This document shows positions 8,374-21,937 of a stretch of DNA of 41,567 nt, piece by piece. The notes beneath the pieces were generated by a model that had not been told where the DNA came from, ran no database searches, and saw only the letters and a list, made by a program, of their open reading frames with translations. A program made the position numbers and the translations under genes. The stretch is from Escherichia phage mEpX1, in the sequence record NC_019709.1; one strand, 5' to 3'. Position 1 is the first letter of the stretch. Each line of letters begins with the position of its first letter.

Positions 8374-11300
8374 ATGGGTGAAAATATGGCTACGTTGCGC
8401 GAACTGATCATCAAAATATCTGCAAACTCTCAGTCATTCCAGTCTGAAATTTCTCGTGCTTCAAGAATGGGGAATGACTATTACCGGGTAATGCAGACTG
8501 GAGGACGCCAATCGGCCGCAGCTTCGCGTGAAACTCAGCGTGCCTTGGCTGAGGTAACTAGTCAAATAAACACCGCGAAGGCCTCAGCACTGGGAATGGC
8601 TGGTGCATTTGCTGGAGCATTTGCGACTGGTCATCTTATATCGCTGGCCGATGAATGGAGCTCTGTTAATGCCAGGCTAAAGCAGGCTTCCCAGTCGTCA
8701 GATGATTTCACGGAGTCCCAGCGGGCGCTGATGGATATTAGCCAGCGAACCGGAACCGCCTTCTCTGATAATGCGAGTCTTTTTGCGCGTTCAGCCGCTT
8801 CTATGCGTGAATATGGCTACAGTTCAGAAGAGGTTCTGAAGGTAACCGAGGCTATATCAACAGGGCTTAAGCTGTCAGGCGCAAGCGCGTCTGAAGCGAG
8901 TTCGGTAATCACGCAGTTCAGCCAGGCTCTGGCGCAGGGTGTTCTTCGAGGCGAGGAATTTAACTCCGTCAACGAAAACGGTGATCGAGTTATCCGTGCT
9001 CTTGCCGCAGGGATGGGTGTAGCTCGTAAAGATCTGAAGGCAATGGCCGATCAGGGGATGCTAACCGCAGATAAAGTTGTCCCGGCCCTGATAAGTCAAC
9101 TTGGCACTATGCGTGGTGAATTTGAGGCAATGCCGCAGACCGTTTCTGCTGCCACGACGAAAGTCGAAAATGCTTTCATGGCATGGGTAGGTGGCGCTAA
9201 TGAAGCCACTGGTGCGACAAGTACTCTTGTTGCCGTATTGAATACGGTTTCTGACAATATAGACACTGTGGCTACGGCTGCCGGAGCTTTGGCTGCGATA
9301 GGTGGAGCTCGCTATCTTGGAGGGATGTTTGGCGATCTTGGGAACCAGACGGCGCAATTAATAGATGCCAGAAAGAACGAAATTGCGCTCGCAGCTGCAA
9401 GGGCTGAATCTGCTACCCAATCACAACGCAAGGCCGCCGCCGATGCTATTGCTGCTGAGCGAGCTTACCAGCTTGCTCAGTCAGAACTTGTGCTGGCAAA
9501 GAATACTAATGCTGAGGCTACTGCCACTCAAAATGCCATATCCAAGCGCCGGGCAATGATTACAGCAAATGCGGCACTGGTACAGTCAAACAGAGCCGTT
9601 GCAGCCTCTCAGCAGGCACTTAACTCTGCAACATCAGTGCTGGGGCTTGTAAAAACTGGCGCTACGGGTCTTTTGTCGTTAGTTGGTGGTTTGCCAGGAA
9701 TTTTAATGTTGGGTGCTGGGGCGTGGTACACGATGTATCAACGCCAAGAACAAGCCAGGGAATCTGCAATCCAATATGCGGACACAATCGAGCAGGTACG
9801 AGATAATCTGAAATCAATGTCTCAGACGCAGATATCCGCCAACCTTGGACAGGCGAATATTTCACTGGATGCTCAGAATAGTGCGATTGAACAGCAGAAG
9901 CAGAAAGTTGCTGAATTATCCAATCAACTTTATAACGCAAAATTAGCAGCCAATTCTGCTTCAGAGGGGACATGGCTGTATAACGATGCGGTTGAGAAAG
10001 CCGCAGACTTTGCTTCAGAACTTGCGGTTGAAGAAGGCCGACTTGAGCAAATGCTCAATAAAAGAAAGCAAACACAACAGTTAATAAACGACATAACTGA
10101 TCAGGCTATAAATAAAACAGTAGAAATGGCTGGCGCCGTAAGTTCTCTTACAGAGATGTATGACCGGCTGAACAAGGTTTCCAGACAGTCTACAGCAGTG
10201 TCCCCACCAAAATATGCAGGACCTGTACTTCCTGCGCTTGATAATAAGCAACAACAAGCTATTGAGAAAGCACAGCGACAGCTTGAGCTATCTGGCCTTC
10301 AGGGTTTGGATAAGGCTCGAAAGCAGGCAGAATTCGATGCATCTGATCTGAACCTTCCAGCTGGTTGGCGTGAGAAATATGTCAGCATGGAAGTTGAGTC
10401 TGCCAGGCAATTACAAGCAATTCGTAACTCAAGCCGCCATAAGGGTGGAAAATCCGAGGCGGAAAAAACAGCTGATACCTATGACAAGCTGATCAAGCAG
10501 CAAAAAGAGCAGATCGCTCTGCAAGGGCAGAATACCGAGCTGGCAAAGGTTAAATATCAGGTAAGCCAGGGTGAGCTTTCTACGCTAAGTCAGGCCCAGA
10601 AAGCCGAAGTTATGCGTAATGCTGCTCTCATCGATCAGGTTAAATTGCGTGAGCAACTGCGAAATTACGAAGCCAACCTTGCTGACAGTAACGCCAGCGC
10701 CCGCGCAGCCAATGAAGCGCAACTGCTGGGCTACGGGCAGGGAACCAGGTTCCGTGAAAGACTTCAGGAGCAGTTCAGTCTGCGTAAGGAGTTTGAGCAG
10801 AAGAATACCGATCTTCTCCGCCAGCGTCAGGCTGGTGAAATCGACGAGACGTTCTATCAGCAGGGGCTGGCACTTAATAAGCGCTACCTCGAAGAGCGCC
10901 TGCGCGACCAGGAGGGATATTACGCAGCTTCTGATGCGCAGCGTGACGACTGGATGACGGGACTGTCTGAGGGTTATGCGAACTGGGTGGATGAAGCGAC
11001 AGATTACTCCTCCATGGCAGCTGACGGGATGAAGCAGGCAATGGGTGGGGCGGTAACTTCGATTACTGACATGCTCAATGGTAACGTCGACAGCTGGAAG
11101 GACTGGGGTGTCAGCGTACTGAAGATCATCCAGAATGTTCTGGTCAATATGGCTGTTGCTAACGGCGTCAGTTCAATTGGTTCTCTCTTCAGCTTTGGCG
11201 CATCTTCCGCCGCTGCCGCCAGTAGCGGTACTGCAATTCAGAACGCTGGCGCGAACTTCACCTTTAACGCGAAGGGTAATGTTTACGACTCTCCGTCCCT

Positions 11301-14442: not shown

Positions 14443-17400
14443 ATGGCTACAGATAAAGTGTTAAAAGGCCGCAAGGGCGGCAGCTCAAGTTCCCGAACCC
14501 CTACCGAACAGCCTGATGATCTGCAATCTGTAGCGAAGGCAAAAATCCTCGTTGCGCTTGGGGAAGGTGAGTTTGCAGGGCAGCTCACCGGCAAAGATAT
14601 CTACCTGGACGGAACAGCGCTGGAGAATGCTGACGGCTCCCAAAACTTCAGCGGGGTAACGTGGGAGTTTCGCGCGGGAACTCAGGCGCAAAAATATATT
14701 CAGGGTATTCCCGGTACCGAAAACGAGATCAGCGTAGGAACTGAGGTATCAAGTGCCACAGCCTGGACGCGCACGTTTACCAATACGCAGCTTTCAGCAG
14801 TTCGCCTGCGTCTTAAATGGCCCTCGCTTTTCAAACAGGAAGACGACGGCGATCTGGTGGGTTACTCGGTCAATTATGCGATTGACCTACAGACGGACGG
14901 CGGCACATGGCAGACGGTACTCAATACCAGCGTGACCGGTAAAACGACGTCTGGTTATGAGCGCAGCCACCGTATCGATTTACCGCAGGCTGGCAGCACC
15001 TGGACAATACGTCTGCGTAAGATTACCTCTGACGCCAACAGCGCGAAGATCGGCGACACGATGATGCTGCAGAGCTTCACCGAGGTGATTGACGCCAAAC
15101 TGCGCTACCCGAACACCGCGCTGCTCTACGTCGAATTCGACTCAAGCCAGTTCAACGGCTCTATTCCTCAAATTTCATGCGAACCGCGCGGCCGCGTTAT
15201 CCGCGTTCCAGATACCTACGACCCTGAAACCCGCACTTATAGCGGTACATGGACCGGTGCGTTTAAGTGGGCATGGACGGATAACCCTGCGTGGATTTTT
15301 TACGACCTGGTTGTTTCTGACCGGTTCGGCCTTGGGCACCGTTTGACCGCTGCGAATATTGATAAATGGACGCTTTATCAGGTTGCTCAGTATTGTGATC
15401 AGATGGTACCAGACGGCAAAGGGGGCAACGGTACAGAACCACGTTATACCTGCAACGTGTACATTCAGGACCGGAACGACGCCTACACAGTCCTGCGTGA
15501 TTTTGCCGCTATCTTCCGTGGCATGACCTACTGGGGCGGGGATCAGATTGTGGCCCTGGCTGACATGCCGCGCGATGTTGATTACAGCTATACGCGCGCT
15601 AACGTTGTTGGCGGTCGCTTCACCTATTCGAGCAGCACCACGAAAAGCCGCTACACCACAGCGCTGGTTTCATGGTCAGACCCGGGTAACGCTTATGCCG
15701 ACGCAATGGAGCCGGTATTTGAGCAGGCGCTGGTGGCGCGATACGGCTTCAATCAGCTGGAAATGACAGCCATCGGCTGCACCAGGCAGTCAGAGGCGAA
15801 CCGAAAGGGGCGCTGGGGTATTCTCACCAACAACAAGGATCGCGTTGTTTCGTTTGATGTCGGGCTGGACGGAAACATTCCGCAGCCGGGCTACATCATC
15901 GCCGTGGCAGACGAGCTGCTTTCCGGAAAGGTTATGGGCGGCCGCATCAGCGCCGTTAACGGTCGCGTTATCAAACTTGACCGCGTAGCTGATGCAGCAC
16001 CAGGTGATCGCCTTATTCTCAACCTGCCTTCCGGAGCGTCGCAGAGCAGGACCATTCAGGCCGTGAACGGGGAATCAGTCACAGTCACCACGGCATACAG
16101 TGAGACGCCACAGGCCGAAGCTGTTTGGGTGGTTGAATCTGACGAGCTTTACGCGCAGCAGTATCGTGTTGTCAGCGTCTCCGACAACGGTGATGGCACT
16201 TTCTCAATCACCGGCGCATGGCACGACCCGGATAAATATGCCCACATCGATACCGGAGCCATCATTGACCAGCGGCCGGTGAGCGTGATCCCGCCTGGTA
16301 ACCAGTCGCCGCCTGCGAACATCGTGATCAGCTCGTTTTCCGTGGTGCAGCAAAATATCAGCGTCGAAACGATGCGCGTGAGCTGGGACCAGGCGCAGAA
16401 CGCTATCGCCTATGAAGCGCAATGGCGCCGCAACGACGGGAACTGGGTTAACGTGCCGCGCACCTCCACCACGTCATTCGACGTCCCGGGGATTTATGCC
16501 GGGCGCTACCTGGTGCGGGTGCGCGCAATCAATGCCGCAGAAATTTCATCCGGATGGGGCTATTCAGAAGAGAAAACGCTGACGGGTAAAGTGGGCAATC
16601 CACCTAAGCCGGTTGGCTTCATCGCTTCTGAAAATGTGGTTTTCGGCATCGAGCTGAACTGGGGATTCCCGGCGAATACCGACGACACGCTGAAGACGGA
16701 AATTCAGTACAGCCTGACCGGAACCGAGGACGATGCGATACTGCTGGCCGATGTGCCTTATCCGCAGCGCAAATATCAGCAGATGGGCCTCAAGGCTGGG
16801 CAGATTTTCTGGTACCGCGCTCAGCTGGTGGACCGCAGCGGCAACGAATCAGGGTACACAGAATGGGTGCGAGGACAGGCCAGCATCGATGTTTCCGACA
16901 TCACAGATGTGATCCTGGAGGACATGAAAGGCTCCGATACGTTCAAAGACCTGATCGAGAACGCTGTGGACAGCAATGAAAAAATTGCTGGCATGGCTGA
17001 CGACATCAAACAGGCTAACGATGAACTTGAGCTCCAGGCGCAGGAAATCGCAAAAAACGCGCAGGACATTGGGCAGGTTCAGACCAGCGTTAATGAGCTT
17101 TCTAGCACGGTCGGTGATGTGTCGTCTTCTCTCTCAGATCTTGAGCAGACTGTTGCGACTGCTGATACCGCACTGGGCCAGCGAATCGACAGCATCAGCG
17201 TGTCTATGGACGGCATGACGGGCGGGGTGAAGAACTCTGCTATCGCAATTATCCAGAACGGGCTGGCACAAGTGGCTACGCGTAAATCGTTGTCAGCTTC
17301 GGTCGCAGGGAACAGTGCGCAGCTGGATCGTATTGATGAGGTAATCGTTAACGAGAAGGAGGCAACGGCGCGTTCTCTGCTGAGCCTGCAGACGGATGTC

Positions 17401-17994
17401 AACGGCAACAAGGCATCCATAAACAGCCTGAATCAGACGTTCTCCGACTATCAGCAGGCTACGGCCACGCAGATAAACGGCATTACGGCGACCGTGAACG
17501 GGCATACCTCCGCCATCACCACTAACGCTCAGGCGATAGCCAACGTTAATGGCGACCTCAGCGCGATGTACAACATCAAGGTTGGCGTTTCCAGCAACGG
17601 TCAGTATTACGCCGCGGGGATGGGTATCGGCGTGGAGAATACGCCATCCGGCATGCAGTCGCAGGTTATCTTCCTGGCTGATCGCTTCGCCGTCACCACG
17701 GCGGCCGGAAATAGCGTGGCTTTGCCGTTCGTGATCCAGAACGGGCAGACATTCATCCGGGCCAGTTTCATCCAGGACGGCACTATCAGCAACGCAAAGA
17801 TTGGTAATTTTATCCAGTCGAACAATTATGTTGCTGGTTCTGCTGGCTGGAAGCTTGATAAAGGGGGGACGTTTGAGAACTACGGTTCGACTGCTGGTGA
17901 GGGAGCCATGAAACTGACAAATCAGACGATCAGCGTCAAAGATGGCAGTAATGTTCTTAGGGTGCAGGTTGGCCGATTAACGGGAGTATTCTGA
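14443..17994 (+). CDS. J: Host specificity / central tail fibre protein J
   Basis: 1183-aa ORF at the J position after I; size typical of lambda-like gpJ. Confidence 0.9.
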   Translation: MATDKVLKGRKGGSSSSRTPTEQPDDLQSVAKAKILVALGEGEFAGQLTGKDIYLDGTALENADGSQNFSGVTWEFRAGTQAQKYIQGIPGTENEISVGTEVSSATAWTRTFTNTQLSAVRLRLKWPSLFKQEDDGDLVGYSVNYAIDLQTDGGTWQTVLNTSVTGKTTSGYERSHRIDLPQAGSTWTIRLRKITSDANSAKIGDTMMLQSFTEVIDAKLRYPNTALLYVEFDSSQFNGSIPQISCEPRGRVIRVPDTYDPETRTYSGTWTGAFKWAWTDNPAWIFYDLVVSDRFGLGHRLTAANIDKWTLYQVAQYCDQMVPDGKGGNGTEPRYTCNVYIQDRNDAYTVLRDFAAIFRGMTYWGGDQIVALADMPRDVDYSYTRANVVGGRFTYSSSTTKSRYTTALVSWSDPGNAYADAMEPVFEQALVARYGFNQLEMTAIGCTRQSEANRKGRWGILTNNKDRVVSFDVGLDGNIPQPGYIIAVADELLSGKVMGGRISAVNGRVIKLDRVADAAPGDRLILNLPSGASQSRTIQAVNGESVTVTTAYSETPQAEAVWVVESDELYAQQYRVVSVSDNGDGTFSITGAWHDPDKYAHIDTGAIIDQRPVSVIPPGNQSPPANIVISSFSVVQQNISVETMRVSWDQAQNAIAYEAQWRRNDGNWVNVPRTSTTSFDVPGIYAGRYLVRVRAINAAEISSGWGYSEEKTLTGKVGNPPKPVGFIASENVVFGIELNWGFPANTDDTLKTEIQYSLTGTEDDAILLADVPYPQRKYQQMGLKAGQIFWYRAQLVDRSGNESGYTEWVRGQASIDVSDITDVILEDMKGSDTFKDLIENAVDSNEKIAGMADDIKQANDELELQAQEIAKNAQDIGQVQTSVNELSSTVGDVSSSLSDLEQTVATADTALGQRIDSISVSMDGMTGGVKNSAIAIIQNGLAQVATRKSLSASVAGNSAQLDRIDEVIVNEKEATARSLLSLQTDVNGNKASINSLNQTFSDYQQATATQINGITATVNGHTSAITTNAQAIANVNGDLSAMYNIKVGVSSNGQYYAAGMGIGVENTPSGMQSQVIFLADRFAVTTAAGNSVALPFVIQNGQTFIRASFIQDGTISNAKIGNFIQSNNYVAGSAGWKLDKGGTFENYGSTAGEGAMKLTNQTISVKDGSNVLRVQVGRLTGVF

Positions 17995-17995
17995 A

Positions 17996-18298
17996 ATGGC
18001 TTATGGAATACAGACCTGGGATGCTTCAGGAAAACCCAACAACTATGGCATCAAACCCGTTTCCGTCGTTGGGCGAATACAGCTGGCTGCCGGGCAAACC
18101 TCCGGCAGCTGGTCTTTTACGGTGCCCTCAGGAATGAAAGTTGGTTTTGTTCTTTCACTTGATGAAGGAGGTAACAGCGTAGGGCGGCGCATTGTCGCGT
18201 CAGGGAGCACAATAACCGTAAGCGCTGCATCTTCTGTAGGTCTGGGTAATTATCCGGCCTCAAAGTGTGAAGTGGTCGTTTTCATGGAGAAAGCATAA
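17996..18298 (+). CDS. Hypothetical protein translationally coupled to J
   Basis: 100-aa ORF starting 2 nt after the J stop; shares a WD-[AS]-SGK motif with the next ORF. Confidence 0.5.
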   Translation: MAYGIQTWDASGKPNNYGIKPVSVVGRIQLAAGQTSGSWSFTVPSGMKVGFVLSLDEGGNSVGRRIVASGSTITVSAASSVGLGNYPASKCEVVVFMEKA

Positions 18299-18936
18299 TG
18301 GCCGAATTTGGCGCGATGATATTAATGGACAACGGGAACCCATTTGTAACGCCCCAGTCAACGCCTTTTTGTCTTTACGGCAAGTACACTTTCAACTCCT
18401 CTGCTAATGGCAGTTCGCAGCAGGTTGCTCAGAATATTGCATTAAATGCTGACTACCCTGTGATGGTATTTATCAGGACCACAAATACCGCCCAGCCCAC
18501 GCCAGTAATATCTTACCGGAACGGCGGAAATATATATGTCGCGGGGGTTAATCCCTATAACCAGAGCTTCACGTTAACCGCATATATTTTTGCCATATTT
18601 CCCCAGACGTTACCGAAATGGGGGATGGCCATCTGGGATTCGAGCGGGAAGCTGGTACTCACTAATGAGTCCCGCGTGCTGTCAGACTTGCAGACAATCG
18701 GAACGCCTGGAGCAAACGGCGGGATTAACATTGACCAGACGCTTGATGGTTCATGGGCAGTGGCTCCATCAAGGCTGGGGCAAGTGAACAGAAACGACGC
18801 TTACTCATCTTGTAGGTATTCAGGCACAAGTACAAGAATAAACGCCGGTACAGCCGCAAATACACCTGGCGGTGCTGGAGGGGTGATAAATAATGGAATT
18901 ATCCTGACAGCAATTAAAACAGACGCCTATGATTGA
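18298..18936 (+). CDS. Hypothetical protein (possible tail-tip accessory)
   Basis: 212-aa ORF; start overlaps upstream stop (ATAATG); Gly/Asn-rich C-terminus. Confidence 0.5.
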   Translation: MAEFGAMILMDNGNPFVTPQSTPFCLYGKYTFNSSANGSSQQVAQNIALNADYPVMVFIRTTNTAQPTPVISYRNGGNIYVAGVNPYNQSFTLTAYIFAIFPQTLPKWGMAIWDSSGKLVLTNESRVLSDLQTIGTPGANGGINIDQTLDGSWAVAPSRLGQVNRNDAYSSCRYSGTSTRINAGTAANTPGGAGGVINNGIILTAIKTDAYD

Positions 18937-19043: not shown

Positions 19044-19277
19044 ATGAAAAGGCTAATTATCTGCATAGCGGGCGCTTTAATGCTGTCTGGTTGCGCTGGT
19101 GTACTTGAGAAACAGAAACCGATTTGCAGCGGCACGGCATATATGGGTGGCCATGAGAATACCGTTATGATTTACGCCGTTCGAAAGCAAAACAACCAGA
19201 CGCAATACCGGGCCGGATATCCCTTTAACTGGCGCTGGGTAAGTGCGAACACATTCACAAGCACGACATGTAAATAA
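19044..19277 (+). CDS. Small lipoprotein (moron; possibly Cor-like)
   Basis: 77 aa; signal peptide with lipobox L-S-G-C; AT-rich island between J-associated genes and tail fibre; terminator-like hairpin downstream. Confidence 0.5.
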   Translation: MKRLIICIAGALMLSGCAGVLEKQKPICSGTAYMGGHENTVMIYAVRKQNNQTQYRAGYPFNWRWVSANTFTSTTCK

Positions 19278-19296
19278 CTCATGATTTTCAATGCAA

Positions 19297-19319
19297 ACCT
19301 CGCCTCGGCGGGGTTTTTT
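19297..19319 (+). terminator. GC-rich hairpin plus T-run after lipoprotein gene
   Basis: cctcgcctcggcgggg followed by tttttt. Confidence 0.4.
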
Positions 19320-19335
19320 ATTGCCTGGAGAAAAT

Positions 19336-20553
19336 ATGCTTTATAACACTGGAACCATCGCCATTAACGGAAACAGCGCCACCGGCACGGGCACGAACTG
19401 GACGGCACCCGCCAGCCAGGTTCGCGCTGGCCAGACGATTATCGTGATGTCTAACCCGGTTCAGATGTTCCAGATTTCATCCGTGAACAGCGCCACGTCA
19501 ATGACGGTAACGCCTGCTGCATCACCGGCGCTGAGCGGCCAGAAATACGGGATTCTGATTACTGACAGCCTGTCAGTTGATGGGCTGGCTCAGAGCATTT
19601 CTCAGCTGATAAAAGAATACGATGAGAATATTGGGGCATGGGAATCTTTTGCCACTACCTCAGCAAACCAGAACATCACCGTTACCATCAATGGCACCCC
19701 TGTAACGATCCCCGGCATCGGCAAATTACTGCAGAAAGGGACAAATGGTGCACTGGCCGTAAAGGACGGCGGTACCGGCGCAACGAATGCTGCCGACGCT
19801 CGCACAAACCTCGGTTTAGACAAAACGGTAAGTACCGAAGGAGACCAGTCCATTTCAGGAGTGAAAAACTTCACTGGCACTTTCAAAATCACAGCAAACT
19901 ATCCGCAAGTCACTTTATGGGCTACATCCAAGCCAAACGGCACTTATGGCAGGGTAGTTACTTTTGGTAACGATGGCAATAAAGCATTCATTGCTGCAAG
20001 GCAATGGGAGGGCGGTAACAACACATGCGTGACCTATCTGCCCGCTTTTAAGGATGGATATTTCACATTCTGGACAACCTCAAACACGACAGTAACCTCT
20101 GATGGGACCATCAAGCAGGCGTCCCCCATTGCCAGAATCGTCAAGTCTGAGCAAGAGAATCAGCGAGCGGATGTTGGGGATGATGGATTCACGTGGTGCG
20201 GTTGCGGCACGTCTAACGCGGAGGCTGAGGGAGTATCCATTTCTCGCCTTGACGTAGGTGTTTACGTGATCACCGGCTCTGCAGGGCTGGCTTCCGAGGG
20301 CTGGCAATTACTACCACCGATGGACCCCGGCGGCATGGGGGAGTTGGGTATAGTCGAGGCAGAGCAAACCGACAACGGCGAGCTGACAATCCGCCTGTTT
20401 AGGCGCAAATATATTCTGAGCGATGAAGGAGAGATCGTCAAATCGAAAGGTGAACCGATGGACGTGCCGGCGAACAGCTGGATCGATGTTCGCCTTGGTA
20501 TGCCTGACGATTCCCTGTTTAACCAGCGGATGAGTCAGGATCCTCAGAAATAG
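19336..20553 (+). CDS. Side tail fibre protein (constant part plus currently expressed variable part)
   Basis: 405 aa from ATG 19336 (SD ggag); Gly/Thr/Asn-rich fibre-like composition; a gix-like crossover site lies in-frame at 19806-19817. Confidence 0.8.
   Translation: MLYNTGTIAINGNSATGTGTNWTAPASQVRAGQTIIVMSNPVQMFQISSVNSATSMTVTPAASPALSGQKYGILITDSLSVDGLAQSISQLIKEYDENIGAWESFATTSANQNITVTINGTPVTIPGIGKLLQKGTNGALAVKDGGTGATNAADARTNLGLDKTVSTEGDQSISGVKNFTGTFKITANYPQVTLWATSKPNGTYGRVVTFGNDGNKAFIAARQWEGGNNTCVTYLPAFKDGYFTFWTTSNTTVTSDGTIKQASPIARIVKSEQENQRADVGDDGFTWCGCGTSNAEAEGVSISRLDVGVYVITGSAGLASEGWQLLPPMDPGGMGELGIVEAEQTDNGELTIRLFRRKYILSDEGEIVKSKGEPMDVPANSWIDVRLGMPDDSLFNQRMSQDPQK
19799..19824. repeat. 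Invertase crossover site, left (gix/hix-like)
   Basis: Near-palindrome caaacc-tc-ggttta inside the fibre gene; matches the AAACC-NN-GGTTT core of Gin/Hin sites as I recall them. Confidence 0.6.
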
Positions 20554-21311
20554 TGGAACGCTGATTCCAGATGCTGTTCTGCGGCATCTGGACACGTACA
20601 GAAATATACTGGTCATATGGAATATCTACCGGATCGCCATCGTTGATACCCTGCAGTTCGTTCCTGGCAAATGCTGGCGCTCCAGGATGTGTGCGGTGAT
20701 AGGTTTTCACCAGCACCGAGCCATCTGCGTTGACCTCATAATCCAGCCAGATAAGCGGTTGCTTGTTGCGGTCGGTGGGGATGTCAAAACCGCCATTGAT
20801 GCCGCCCCAGGCCGCGTCAGAGTTAAGCCCCTCACAGCCTTCTACCAGAATTCACCTGTGGTCAGACGCGTTACGTTGCAGCCCTCCGATTCTTCATTGG
20901 TATGGTATGAGCCATCAGAAAAAACCTTTACCACAGGCGATGCGGCTTTTAGTGTGCCATCACTGGCCTTGGTCGTATTGCCGGTGGTGTATGCCTGCAC
21001 CCAGGAGGACCATTTAGATAGTGCCATACCCCTAGCGGCAATCCTGCCGTCAGAACTAATCTGAAGCTGACCAACGCTACCATTTCCATCTGAACCTCCA
21101 GTACGAGTCATGGCCAGAATGCCCGCGTACTGATCGAACCAGTTAACCCCCGTGCTACCACCACCGGATGAAAAGCCATTGTATTTAATCTCATTTGCAT
21201 CAGTGACGGCTGATGCGTTCAAATAGGTGGAACCAATACCAAAAGCCCCTACCTGAATTACGTTCCCCGCTAAAGAACCTACGTCCCTGATAGCACTACT
21301 TCCCAAACCGA
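19811..21311. other. Invertible DNA segment carrying alternative tail-fibre C-terminal regions
   Basis: Bounded by inverted crossover sites with identical central TC; convergent fibre coding regions overlap at 20519-20553; serine invertase gene adjacent. Confidence 0.6.
20519..20850 (-). CDS. C-terminal domain of the alternative fibre in a shifted frame
   Basis: Minus-strand frame offset -1 from Sv' encodes a domain homologous to the plus-strand fibre C-terminus (shared ...R-[VL]-x-MP-x-x-S-[LI]-[FW]-NQR... ending); Sv' hits a TAG at 20842-20844 where the other orientation reads through. Confidence 0.4.
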
Positions 21312-21317
21312 CATTTT
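20842..21317 (-). CDS. Alternative tail-fibre variable segment (Sv'), promoterless in this orientation
   Basis: Minus-strand frame opens right after the right crossover site; shares a TT-[GS]-NTT...SDGT-[IL]-K-x-ASP block with the plus-strand fibre; inversion would fuse it in-frame to the constant part. Confidence 0.6.
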
Positions 21318-21323
21318 ATAGAT
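21298..21323. repeat. Invertase crossover site, right (degenerate half-site)
   Basis: Minus strand reads aaaatg-tc-ggtttg, sharing TCGGTTT with the left site in inverted orientation. Confidence 0.5.
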
Positions 21324-21379
21324 TGCTCTTGAGTAGCCTGGCCGATAACTTCACCTGATTTTTTTGCAGAATTAACTGG

Positions 21380-21937
21380 GTGAAAAATATGCAAATTGGC
21401 TATGTAAGGGTGTCAACAAATGACCAAAATACAGATCTCCAGCGCCAAGCTCTCGAACGCGCAGGATGTGAACAGGTTTTTGAAGAAAAAATGAGCGGGA
21501 CGGTAGCGAACCGGCCAGCGCTCAAAAAGCTTCTGCGGACTCTGAATGCGGGCGATACACTGGTGGTGTGGAAGCTGGACAGGATAGGCCGCAACGTTCT
21601 GCATGCGCTGTTGATGTTCCAGCAGTTACAGGAAAAGGGTATCAACTTCCGCAGTATTACCGATGGCGTGGATCTCAAAACAGCCAGCGGCCGCTATAAC
21701 TTTCGTAACATCCTTTCCGCAGCACAATATGAATCTGATCTTAATAGCGAACGTACCTTAGCAGGGCTGGCCGTAGCCAGGGCAAAAGGGCGAGTTGGTG
21801 GTCGCAGGCCTAAGTTCACGGATGAGCAATGGCGGGAAATGGGGGAGCGGATGGCAACCGGTGAATCACGACAAAGCGTATCAAAAACGTATGGAGTAGG
21901 GCTCTCAACTCTGTATAAAAAGTTTCCAGCTAGCTAA
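21380..21937 (+). CDS. Serine DNA invertase (Hin/Gin/Pin/Cin family)
   Basis: 185 aa; N-terminal catalytic motif IGYVRVSTNDQ with nucleophile Ser, resolvase core, C-terminal HTH; adjacent to the invertible segment. Confidence 0.9.
   Translation: MKNMQIGYVRVSTNDQNTDLQRQALERAGCEQVFEEKMSGTVANRPALKKLLRTLNAGDTLVVWKLDRIGRNVLHALLMFQQLQEKGINFRSITDGVDLKTASGRYNFRNILSAAQYESDLNSERTLAGLAVARAKGRVGGRRPKFTDEQWREMGERMATGESRQSVSKTYGVGLSTLYKKFPAS

Follow-up and report, generated by a model that had tools for sequence, protein, structure and literature searches.

Two genes behind J in an HK022-like lambdoid phage as candidate parts of an FhuA-specific host-recognition module

In the window, the whole 41,567-nucleotide stretch of Escherichia phage mEpX1 DNA analysed here (NC_019709.1), gene J is followed by two open reading frames, ORF1 and ORF2, whose homologues occur together with a characteristic C-terminal tail of J. 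The reading that we favour, with a probability of about 0.65 for the mechanism as a whole, is that ORF2 is an FhuA-binding protein seated on the last 47 residues of J, that ORF1 serves as adaptor or cofactor, that a motif common to both proteins is an assembly arm, and that Cor, the product of the next gene, closes the receptor. We are more confident of the single statement that ORF2 is a tail-tip receptor-binding protein (RBP), and less so of the part assigned to ORF1. A preliminary description of the region had guessed at tail-tip or receptor-binding accessories. The guess is well supported by the joint variation of J tail and cassette, the literature on FhuA phages, the homology to Roth93 proteins and cross-matches to the family phrog_1265, while the word accessory understates the case, as ORF2 is probably the primary FhuA-binding protein. 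The features of the locus are as follows.

14443-17994, gene J, 1183 aa, stop codon TGA at 17992-17994
17851..17991, plus strand, last 47 codons of J (GW, then KLDKGGTFENYGSTAGEGAMKLTNQTISVKDGSNVLRVQVGRLTGVF), cassette-specific tail and proposed docking site
17982..17986, plus strand, Shine-Dalgarno-like GGGAG, 9 nt 5' of the ORF1 ATG, within the end of J
17996..18298, plus strand, ORF1, 100 aa, phrog_557, ATG at 17996, stop codon TAA at 18296-18298
18002..18034, plus strand, motif copy 1, YGIQTWDASGK, ORF1 residues 3-13
18286..18289, plus strand, Shine-Dalgarno-like GGAG, 8 nt 5' of the ORF2 ATG, within ORF1
18298..18936, plus strand, ORF2, 212 aa, phrog_425, ATG at 18298-18300, stop codon at 18934-18936
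18307..18345, plus strand, degenerate motif copy, FGAMILMDNGNPF, ORF2 N-terminus, residues 4-16
18619..18660, plus strand, motif copy 2, WGMAIWDSSGKLVL, ORF2 residues 108-121, linker between both predicted sandwiches
18778..18897, plus strand, variable ORF2 segment, residues 161-200, candidate receptor-facing or specificity region
19044..19277, plus strand, cor, 77 aa, FhuA superinfection-exclusion lipoprotein (phrog_1119, E 2.4e-37; lipobox LSGC)
19295-19316, terminator-like hairpin 3' of cor

The preliminary description was right about the presence and location of both ORFs and about their overlap: the ORF1 stop codon and the ORF2 ATG have a single base in common (TAATG). The junction between J and ORF1, given there as 2 nt, was measured as 1 nt, the spacer base A at 17995. 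The Shine-Dalgarno-like elements in front of both ATGs are sequence readings. Promoter-like or terminator-like sites were not found from the end of J to the last ~30 bp of ORF2; the sole promoter-like match (18904-18933) lies at the extreme end of ORF2, upstream of cor. ORF1 and ORF2 would be made as late products of the tail operon, with neither promoter nor terminator of their own, and the start-stop overlap suggests that their translation is coupled. The further claim of a translational coupling to J agrees with the tight spacing of J and ORF1 here and in phi80, but this spacing is not conserved in other cassette phages. The gap is loose in T1 (45 nt, with an annotated terminator within), JLBYU60 (36 nt) and Sushi (45 nt). 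The conserved junction is that of ORF1 and ORF2, with a one-base overlap in T1, phi80, JLBYU60 and the window and a 5-nt gap in Sushi.

Over their full lengths, ORF1 matches phrog_557 (E 2.4e-36) and ORF2 matches phrog_425 (E 9.7e-75), and each protein is 100% identical to deposited sequences. Counterparts of ORF1 are phi80 gp22, T1 ST32, N15 gp22, JLBYU60 gp25 and Roth93 gp53, and those of ORF2 are phi80 gp23, T1 ST31, N15 gp23, JLBYU60 gp26 and Roth93 gp54; the two Roth93 proteins were confirmed as homologues with E-values of 2e-32 and 9e-32, respectively. The phage of the window is lambdoid and HK022-like. Over this region, its sequence shows 100% identity to HK106, mEpX1, mEpX2, HK446 and mEp234 and 99.8% identity to HK022. 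Identity to phi80 is about 95% over the first 788 bases. At the protein level, ORF1 is 100% identical to phi80 gp22 and ORF2 about 82% to phi80 gp23, which has 224 aa compared to the 212 aa of ORF2 and has diverged from it in the C-terminal 50 residues. ORF1 is generally the more conserved protein, with 70-93% identity versus 42-84% for ORF2. By tblastn, 344 phage records contain ORF1 and 348 contain ORF2; their hosts break down almost identically, and the pair occurs together in about 345 phage records.

The order J, ORF1 and ORF2 homologues, then cor was observed in the four E. coli phages examined, i.e. phi80, T1, JLBYU60 and the window. In the phi80 record, gp22 (100 aa) and gp23 (224 aa) are followed by cor, which is labelled a moron and given a promoter and a terminator of its own. 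In T1, ST32 and ST31 precede a cor gene on the opposite strand, and the record notes the link to N15 gp22/gp23 and to HK022 proteins; in JLBYU60, gp25 and gp26 are followed by an exclusion gene on the strand opposite to the pair. In the Klebsiella phages Sushi and Roth93, the pair lacks an adjacent cor. In the window, the lysogenic-conversion (moron) gene of the locus is cor, the next gene after ORF2. T1 ST32/ST31, phi80 and N15 gp22/gp23, and HK022 NP_597886/NP_597887 belong to the same families and stand in the same order after J, and the T1/phi80-type locus is also like the window in the one-base overlap, the adjacent cor and the J tail. As judged from sequence, there is no essential difference between the window cassette and the T1/phi80/HK022-type FhuA locus.

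To compare the C-termini of J, the last 200 residues were aligned for the window, phi80, T1, JLBYU60, Sushi and Oekolampad. Among the five cassette phages, the last 47 residues, which follow a conserved G-W, are 53-100% identical; over the preceding 155 residues, identity is 29-50%, with 78% between the closely related window and phi80. The tail of the window J is 60-100% identical to those of phi80, T1, JLBYU60 and Sushi, and 19% identical to that of Oekolampad. Between JLBYU60 (FhuA) and Oekolampad (LptD), both members of Dhillonvirus, J is 86% identical upstream, a value that drops to 26% within the tail. Variation in the J tail follows the cassette and not the phage lineage, which implies that tail, ORF1 and ORF2 are inherited as one module, together with cor in the E. 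coli phages examined. This co-variation is the strongest evidence of our analysis that the ORF products may touch J. The same association of J tail and cassette appears in k-mer models (bioRxiv 10.64898/2026.04.02.716166). A Phage_Tail_Tip domain covers residues 1024-1158 at the end of J, with no additional receptor domain. Stretches of the tail (GWKLDKGGTFENYG, ISVKDGSNVLRV) resemble the motif described below with E-values of 0.01-0.17, an unproven resemblance.

Dependence on FhuA has been established experimentally for JLBYU37/41/60, Teewinot, T1 and phi80 (PMC10373560), and the KanT1 paper, summarising Wietzorrek et al. 2006, lists HK022 as dependent on FhuA too (PMC13164509). Receptor specificity is tracked by the locus downstream of gpJ (PMC8594841; bioRxiv 10.64898/2026.04.02.716166), and an FhuA-type 'bona fide RBP locus' after gpJ has been described repeatedly (Maffei et al. 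2021, Matusiak et al. 2025, KlebPhaCol 2025, bioRxiv 2026). In KlebPhaCol, the FhuA-sensitive weberviruses carry Roth93 gp53/gp54 and the FhuA-insensitive Roth44 does not, and the predicted complex of FhuA and Roth93 gp54 has an ipTM of 0.75 (PMC12629751). From models of the JLBYU60 proteins, Matusiak et al. 2025 proposed that a 23-kDa 'hand-like' monomer caps the J trimer and binds FhuA, and ORF1 homologues were claimed to resemble the C-terminal Ig-like receptor domain of lambda gpJ (PMC12309495). In the cryo-EM structure of T1, the C-terminal, distal part of J is not resolved (PMC11945409). For FhuA binding by ORF2 homologues, the literature offers AlphaFold complexes only, and the virion data consist of a single, tentative gel band (SDS-PAGE) from a distantly related Pseudomonas phage (PMC12309495); experiments that detect homologues of ORF1 or ORF2 in virions or demonstrate their binding to FhuA were not found in the accessible literature.

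The preliminary description had also noticed a motif shared by the two proteins, which we write as aromatic-G-h-x-h-W-D-x-x-G-K. In ORF2 its core is WGMAIWDSSGK (residues 108-118). The motif stretch is the sole match in a BLASTP comparison of ORF1 with ORF2 (E 0.018), and the best ungapped 11-mer between them has a BLOSUM62 score of 40, compared to 23.9 +/- 3.3 for shuffled sequences (n=2000), only one of which attained 40. A profile of the ORF1 family matches the C-terminal half of ORF2 over 12 columns with an E-value of 3.4e-6. Among the ORF1 relatives (n=32), G4 is present in 32, W8 in 30 and G12 in 31; of the 30 ORF2 relatives, all have G109 and W113, and 29 have G117. These G/W/G residues are the top-conserved positions of both families. 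Hence, the common motif exceeds chance and is conserved across both families. The degenerate copy at the N-terminus of ORF2, kept as [YF]-G-A-[ML]-I-x3-N-G-N-P-F among 30 homologues, is in register with the internal copy, at an E-value of 0.34 that is not significant alone (hhalign of the N-terminal against the C-terminal half of ORF2).

Profile search and structure prediction, which had been proposed as checks, gave the two phrog memberships and models of soluble beta-sandwich proteins. The AF2 model of ORF1 (pLDDT 77) shows one small beta-sandwich spanning residues 23-99, with residues 1-20 modelled at low confidence. The ORF2 model (pLDDT 82, pTM 0.78) has two beta-sandwiches, at about 24-100 and 131-207, and low confidence precisely at residues 1-20 and 106-123; its least confident part is the region of motif copy 2, with pLDDT values of 44-53. 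The three low-pLDDT stretches of both models coincide with the three motif copies. Conservation along ORF2 is 0.77 for residues 1-27, 0.49 for 28-95, 0.79 for 96-160, 0.54 for 161-200 and 0.77 for 201-212, and motif copy 2 starts the best-conserved block; the conserved blocks are the low-pLDDT arms and the variable blocks the sandwiches. The fact that the arms are conserved yet lack a stable conformation in the monomer is expected of segments that fold against a partner, and the arm is probably an assembly interface.

In the variable segment of ORF2, the DNA identity to phi80 ends at query base 788, and a 12-aa indel separates the ORF2 alleles of the window and phi80. Against Klebsiella phages, tblastn with ORF2 covered residues 1-163 only. 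Neither ORF has an above-threshold match in Pfam, and PDB sequence searches with the single sequences and family profiles of both gave no match. A Foldseek search of the PDB with the ORF2 model gave no match at E <= 0.001, and 9rpt was absent among the 50 matches listed. There are also structure matches to lectin-like sandwiches (3wmp, 2ccv).

The two proteins had been described as internal paralogs or repeats. This applies to the N-terminal arm of 12-19 residues, which by its sequence is common to ORF1 and ORF2. Paralogy of whole domains is weak: ORF1 and the N-terminal half of ORF2 align co-linearly over 73 columns with an E-value of 0.004 and a probability of 8.5%. The family phrog_2427 (103 positions) matches ORF1 residues 1-81 (E 0.009) and ORF2 residues 109-188 (E 0.035) in identical register and is matched by 11/32 ORF1 relatives and 8/30 ORF2 relatives; direct cross-family matches were found from three of the 32 ORF1 relatives to phrog_425 and from six of the 30 ORF2 relatives to phrog_557. 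Full paralogy is unsupported by a search of the ORF1-family profile against 1.84 billion representatives, as none of the 76 matches was ORF2-like; they are mostly relatives of ~100 aa, besides long multi-stretch proteins taken as spurious. The sandwiches of ORF1 and ORF2 are probably homologous, short of a demonstration.

A further comparison is offered by the LptD-type RBPs of Oekolampad and Rtp44, which define phrog_1265. P0077, a member of the ORF2 family, matches phrog_1265 with an E-value of 7.3e-5 (residues 41-162 against profile positions 155-277), and a Klebsiella LptD-type RBP matches phrog_425 (E 0.0012). ORF2 of the window gave no match to phrog_1265, and the PDB profile search did not return 9rpt. 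By hhalign, ORF2 residues 56-177 fall on Oekolampad residues 163-278 in the register of P0077, which is not significant (E 0.03, probability 1.5%), as are the comparisons of ORF1 and ORF2 with the alignment of LptD-type RBPs (E 0.03-0.06). The LptD-type family begins with an invariant G-I-x-I-D-x-N-D-G-R-P, resembling the ORF arms. From one structural method and these marginal sequence matches, the predicted fold of ORF2 may resemble that of the solved LptD-binding RBP. This structural and weak sequence link between FhuA-type and LptD-type RBPs, tentative as it is, is new here; a recent preprint treats them as unrelated. The Oekolampad (Bas18) RBP is a single protein of 321 aa, compared to 100 and 212 aa here, its gene lies on the strand opposite to J, and both its receptor (LptD) and the J tail differ. 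An equivalence of ORF1 with the N-terminal third of this protein was considered and gained no support from hhalign. The complex (PDB 9RPT) shows disorder in the N-terminal part of the Oekolampad RBP, which is proximal to the tail.

In the mechanism that we favour, the last ~47 residues of J, ORF1, ORF2 and cor would form one exchangeable, FhuA-specific host-recognition module. ORF2, soluble and built of two beta-sandwiches, would be held by non-covalent contacts on the C-terminal tail of the trimeric J and bind the extracellular face of FhuA, leading to irreversible adsorption, while ORF1, a single sandwich of similar kind, would act as adaptor between J and ORF2 or as assembly cofactor. Presence in the virion, stoichiometry, the protein that touches J and the direct contact with FhuA are what we infer in this scheme. 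The motif would form a beta-hairpin-like arm ahead of each sandwich, ordered only in the assembled complex and serving as a protein-protein interface rather than a receptor site; the variable sandwich surfaces, notably ORF2 residues 161-200, would carry the specificity. Cor, expressed separately, would block FhuA from the periplasm, so that the lysogen or infected cell is not re-infected. T5, with pb5 and Llp, likewise has a separate monomeric RBP, a trimeric tail tip, FhuA binding and an FhuA-blocking periplasmic lipoprotein (PMC9586334). However, pb5 is one protein of much larger size from a different locus, and no sequence or fold match to the ORFs was found.

One or both ORFs, ORF1 especially, might instead encode assembly chaperones that are absent from the virion, like helpers of the Tfa/gp38 type. 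ORF1 is small, more conserved than ORF2 and overlaps it by one coding base, published multimer models favour ORF2 over an ORF1 trimer at the J tip, the predicted contact of ORF1 homologues with FhuA is poor, and LptD-type loci have a single RBP and no ORF1. Against this, ORF1 has the conserved arm motif of ORF2, which points to a similar mode of attachment, the possible likeness of ORF2 to an RBP solved with its receptor speaks for its presence in the virion, and neither ORF is similar to known tail-fibre chaperone families. We consider a chaperone role unlikely.

An extension of the favoured mechanism, which we put forward as speculation and hold slightly more doubtful than the chaperone role, is that ORF1 and ORF2 form a 1:1 heterodimer whose three arm-plus-sandwich modules match the three J tails, with the LptD-type RBPs (321 aa) as a fused version. 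If true, the W-D-x-x-G-K hairpin would dock the pair onto J, and the mismatch between three-fold symmetry and a monomer at the tail tip would thereby be solved; RBP families of small siphophages that are supposed to be unrelated would have one ancestor and one docking code in common, which would allow retargeting by module swap.

The J tail might also bind FhuA itself, with ORF1 and ORF2 only modulating host range through a secondary receptor or LPS. The tail is cassette-specific, Lewis et al. took J as the RBP (PMC10373560), and the lectin-like matches could suggest sugar binding; we rate this reading as improbable.

The databases name the two families 'outer membrane protein' (phrog_557) and 'membrane associated protein' (phrog_425), names that hydropathy does not support. 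The maximal Kyte-Doolittle mean over 19 residues is 1.27 for ORF1 and 0.82 for ORF2, compared to 2.09 for the signal peptide of Cor, and neither ORF1, starting with MAYGIQ, nor ORF2, starting with MAEFGA, has a signal peptide, a lipobox or a transmembrane or hydrophobic segment. An outer-membrane beta-barrel of the Lom/Ail type is contradicted by hydropathy and by the soluble sandwich models, and there is no Pfam Ail_Lom match; an identity with Cor/Llp lipoproteins is not tenable either, as neither ORF has the lipobox that the next gene, cor, does have. The cassette shares its genomic neighbourhood with lambda lom and the C-terminal receptor-binding domain of lambda J, so that the comparison with lom, drawn earlier, is correct for the position and fails for the proteins, neither of which has a signal peptide or beta-barrel. 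In lambda, as proposed here, the tip of J is the site of receptor recognition.

That ORF1 and ORF2 are membrane-located helpers of Cor in superinfection exclusion, as their database names, their position next to cor and co-occurrence with it in FhuA phages, and the proposal in the KanT1 paper of 2026 (which reports no Foldseek or HHpred matches; PMC13164509) would have it, is very improbable in view of the missing membrane features, the low membrane-affinity estimates for homologues (PMC12309495), the location in the late tail operon with cor annotated under its own promoter (phi80) or on the opposite strand (T1, JLBYU60), the retention of the pair without adjacent cor in Klebsiella weberviruses, the possible likeness of the fold to that of a solved RBP, and a J tail that varies together with the cassette.

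Both the locus and the role proposed for it have been published before, and the window holds no new biology in this respect; added here are figures for a recombination boundary at the J tail and the coincidence of the common motif with conserved, unmodelled arms. T1, phi80 and HK022 are the classical FhuA phages, and the cassette is the leading candidate for the protein that touches FhuA. Since it travels with the last 47 residues of J, this boundary offers a cut site to engineers who retarget siphophages.

ORF2, the second gene of the cassette, has a breakpoint, due to recombination or divergence, at window 18778-18897 (residues 161-200). The 95% DNA identity with phi80 stops at query base 788, inside ORF2, and 12 residues of the phi80-type ORF2 alleles are absent from the HK022-type allele. 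The alignment to Klebsiella homologues reaches residue 163 only.

Among the database records, coliphage-type cassettes of high identity were observed in 'Acinetobacter phage NJ01' and several 'Campylobacter phage' records, one of which (A134) is flagged UNVERIFIED and has the classification Drexlerviridae; Tempevirinae. These records are probably mislabelled or contaminant. In two database proteins, P0098 and P0106 (230 and 188 aa), an ORF2-like segment is combined with domains of the Phage_min_tail or TipJ family. These could be artefacts of assembly or gene calling, or else genuine fusions of a receptor-binding protein (RBP) with a tail protein.

Window 19291-21937 looks like a Gin/Cin/Pin-type invertible segment, with the following features:

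19291-20553, stf-like gene, terminating in a Phage_tail_C_2 domain
20842-21306, minus strand, ORF beside the serine recombinase, its end matching the start of Phage_tail_C_2
21380-21937, serine recombinase of 185 aa with Resolvase and HTH_7 domains
19953-19969 / 21237-21253, imperfect inverted repeat of 17 nt, within the stf-like gene and the minus-strand ORF

Phage_tail_C_2 is common to the ends of the stf-like gene and of the minus-strand ORF, the latter matching the start of the domain, and inversion could exchange the tail-fibre C-terminus.

The cassette-specific tail of J (window 17851-17991) contains both GWKLDKGGTFENYG and ISVKDGSNVLRV, which are similar to the arm motif of ORF1 and ORF2 (TWDASGKPNNYG and AIWDSSGKLVL). 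As the hhalign E-values are only 0.01-0.17, this sequence likeness may be due to chance.

In the LptD-type RBP family, which includes the Oekolampad RBP (8655-9620 of its locus, L003), the N-terminus is invariant, with the pattern M-x-x-G-I-x-I-D-x-N-D-G-R-P, and there is also an internal block, P-G-x-G-I-T-x-x-N-x-x-G-Q-V-T-F-S-T (both from the family alignment, A5). Each of the two is similar to the arm motif found in proteins of the FhuA type. The LptD-type and FhuA-type families, although treated as unrelated, may have a docking element in common.
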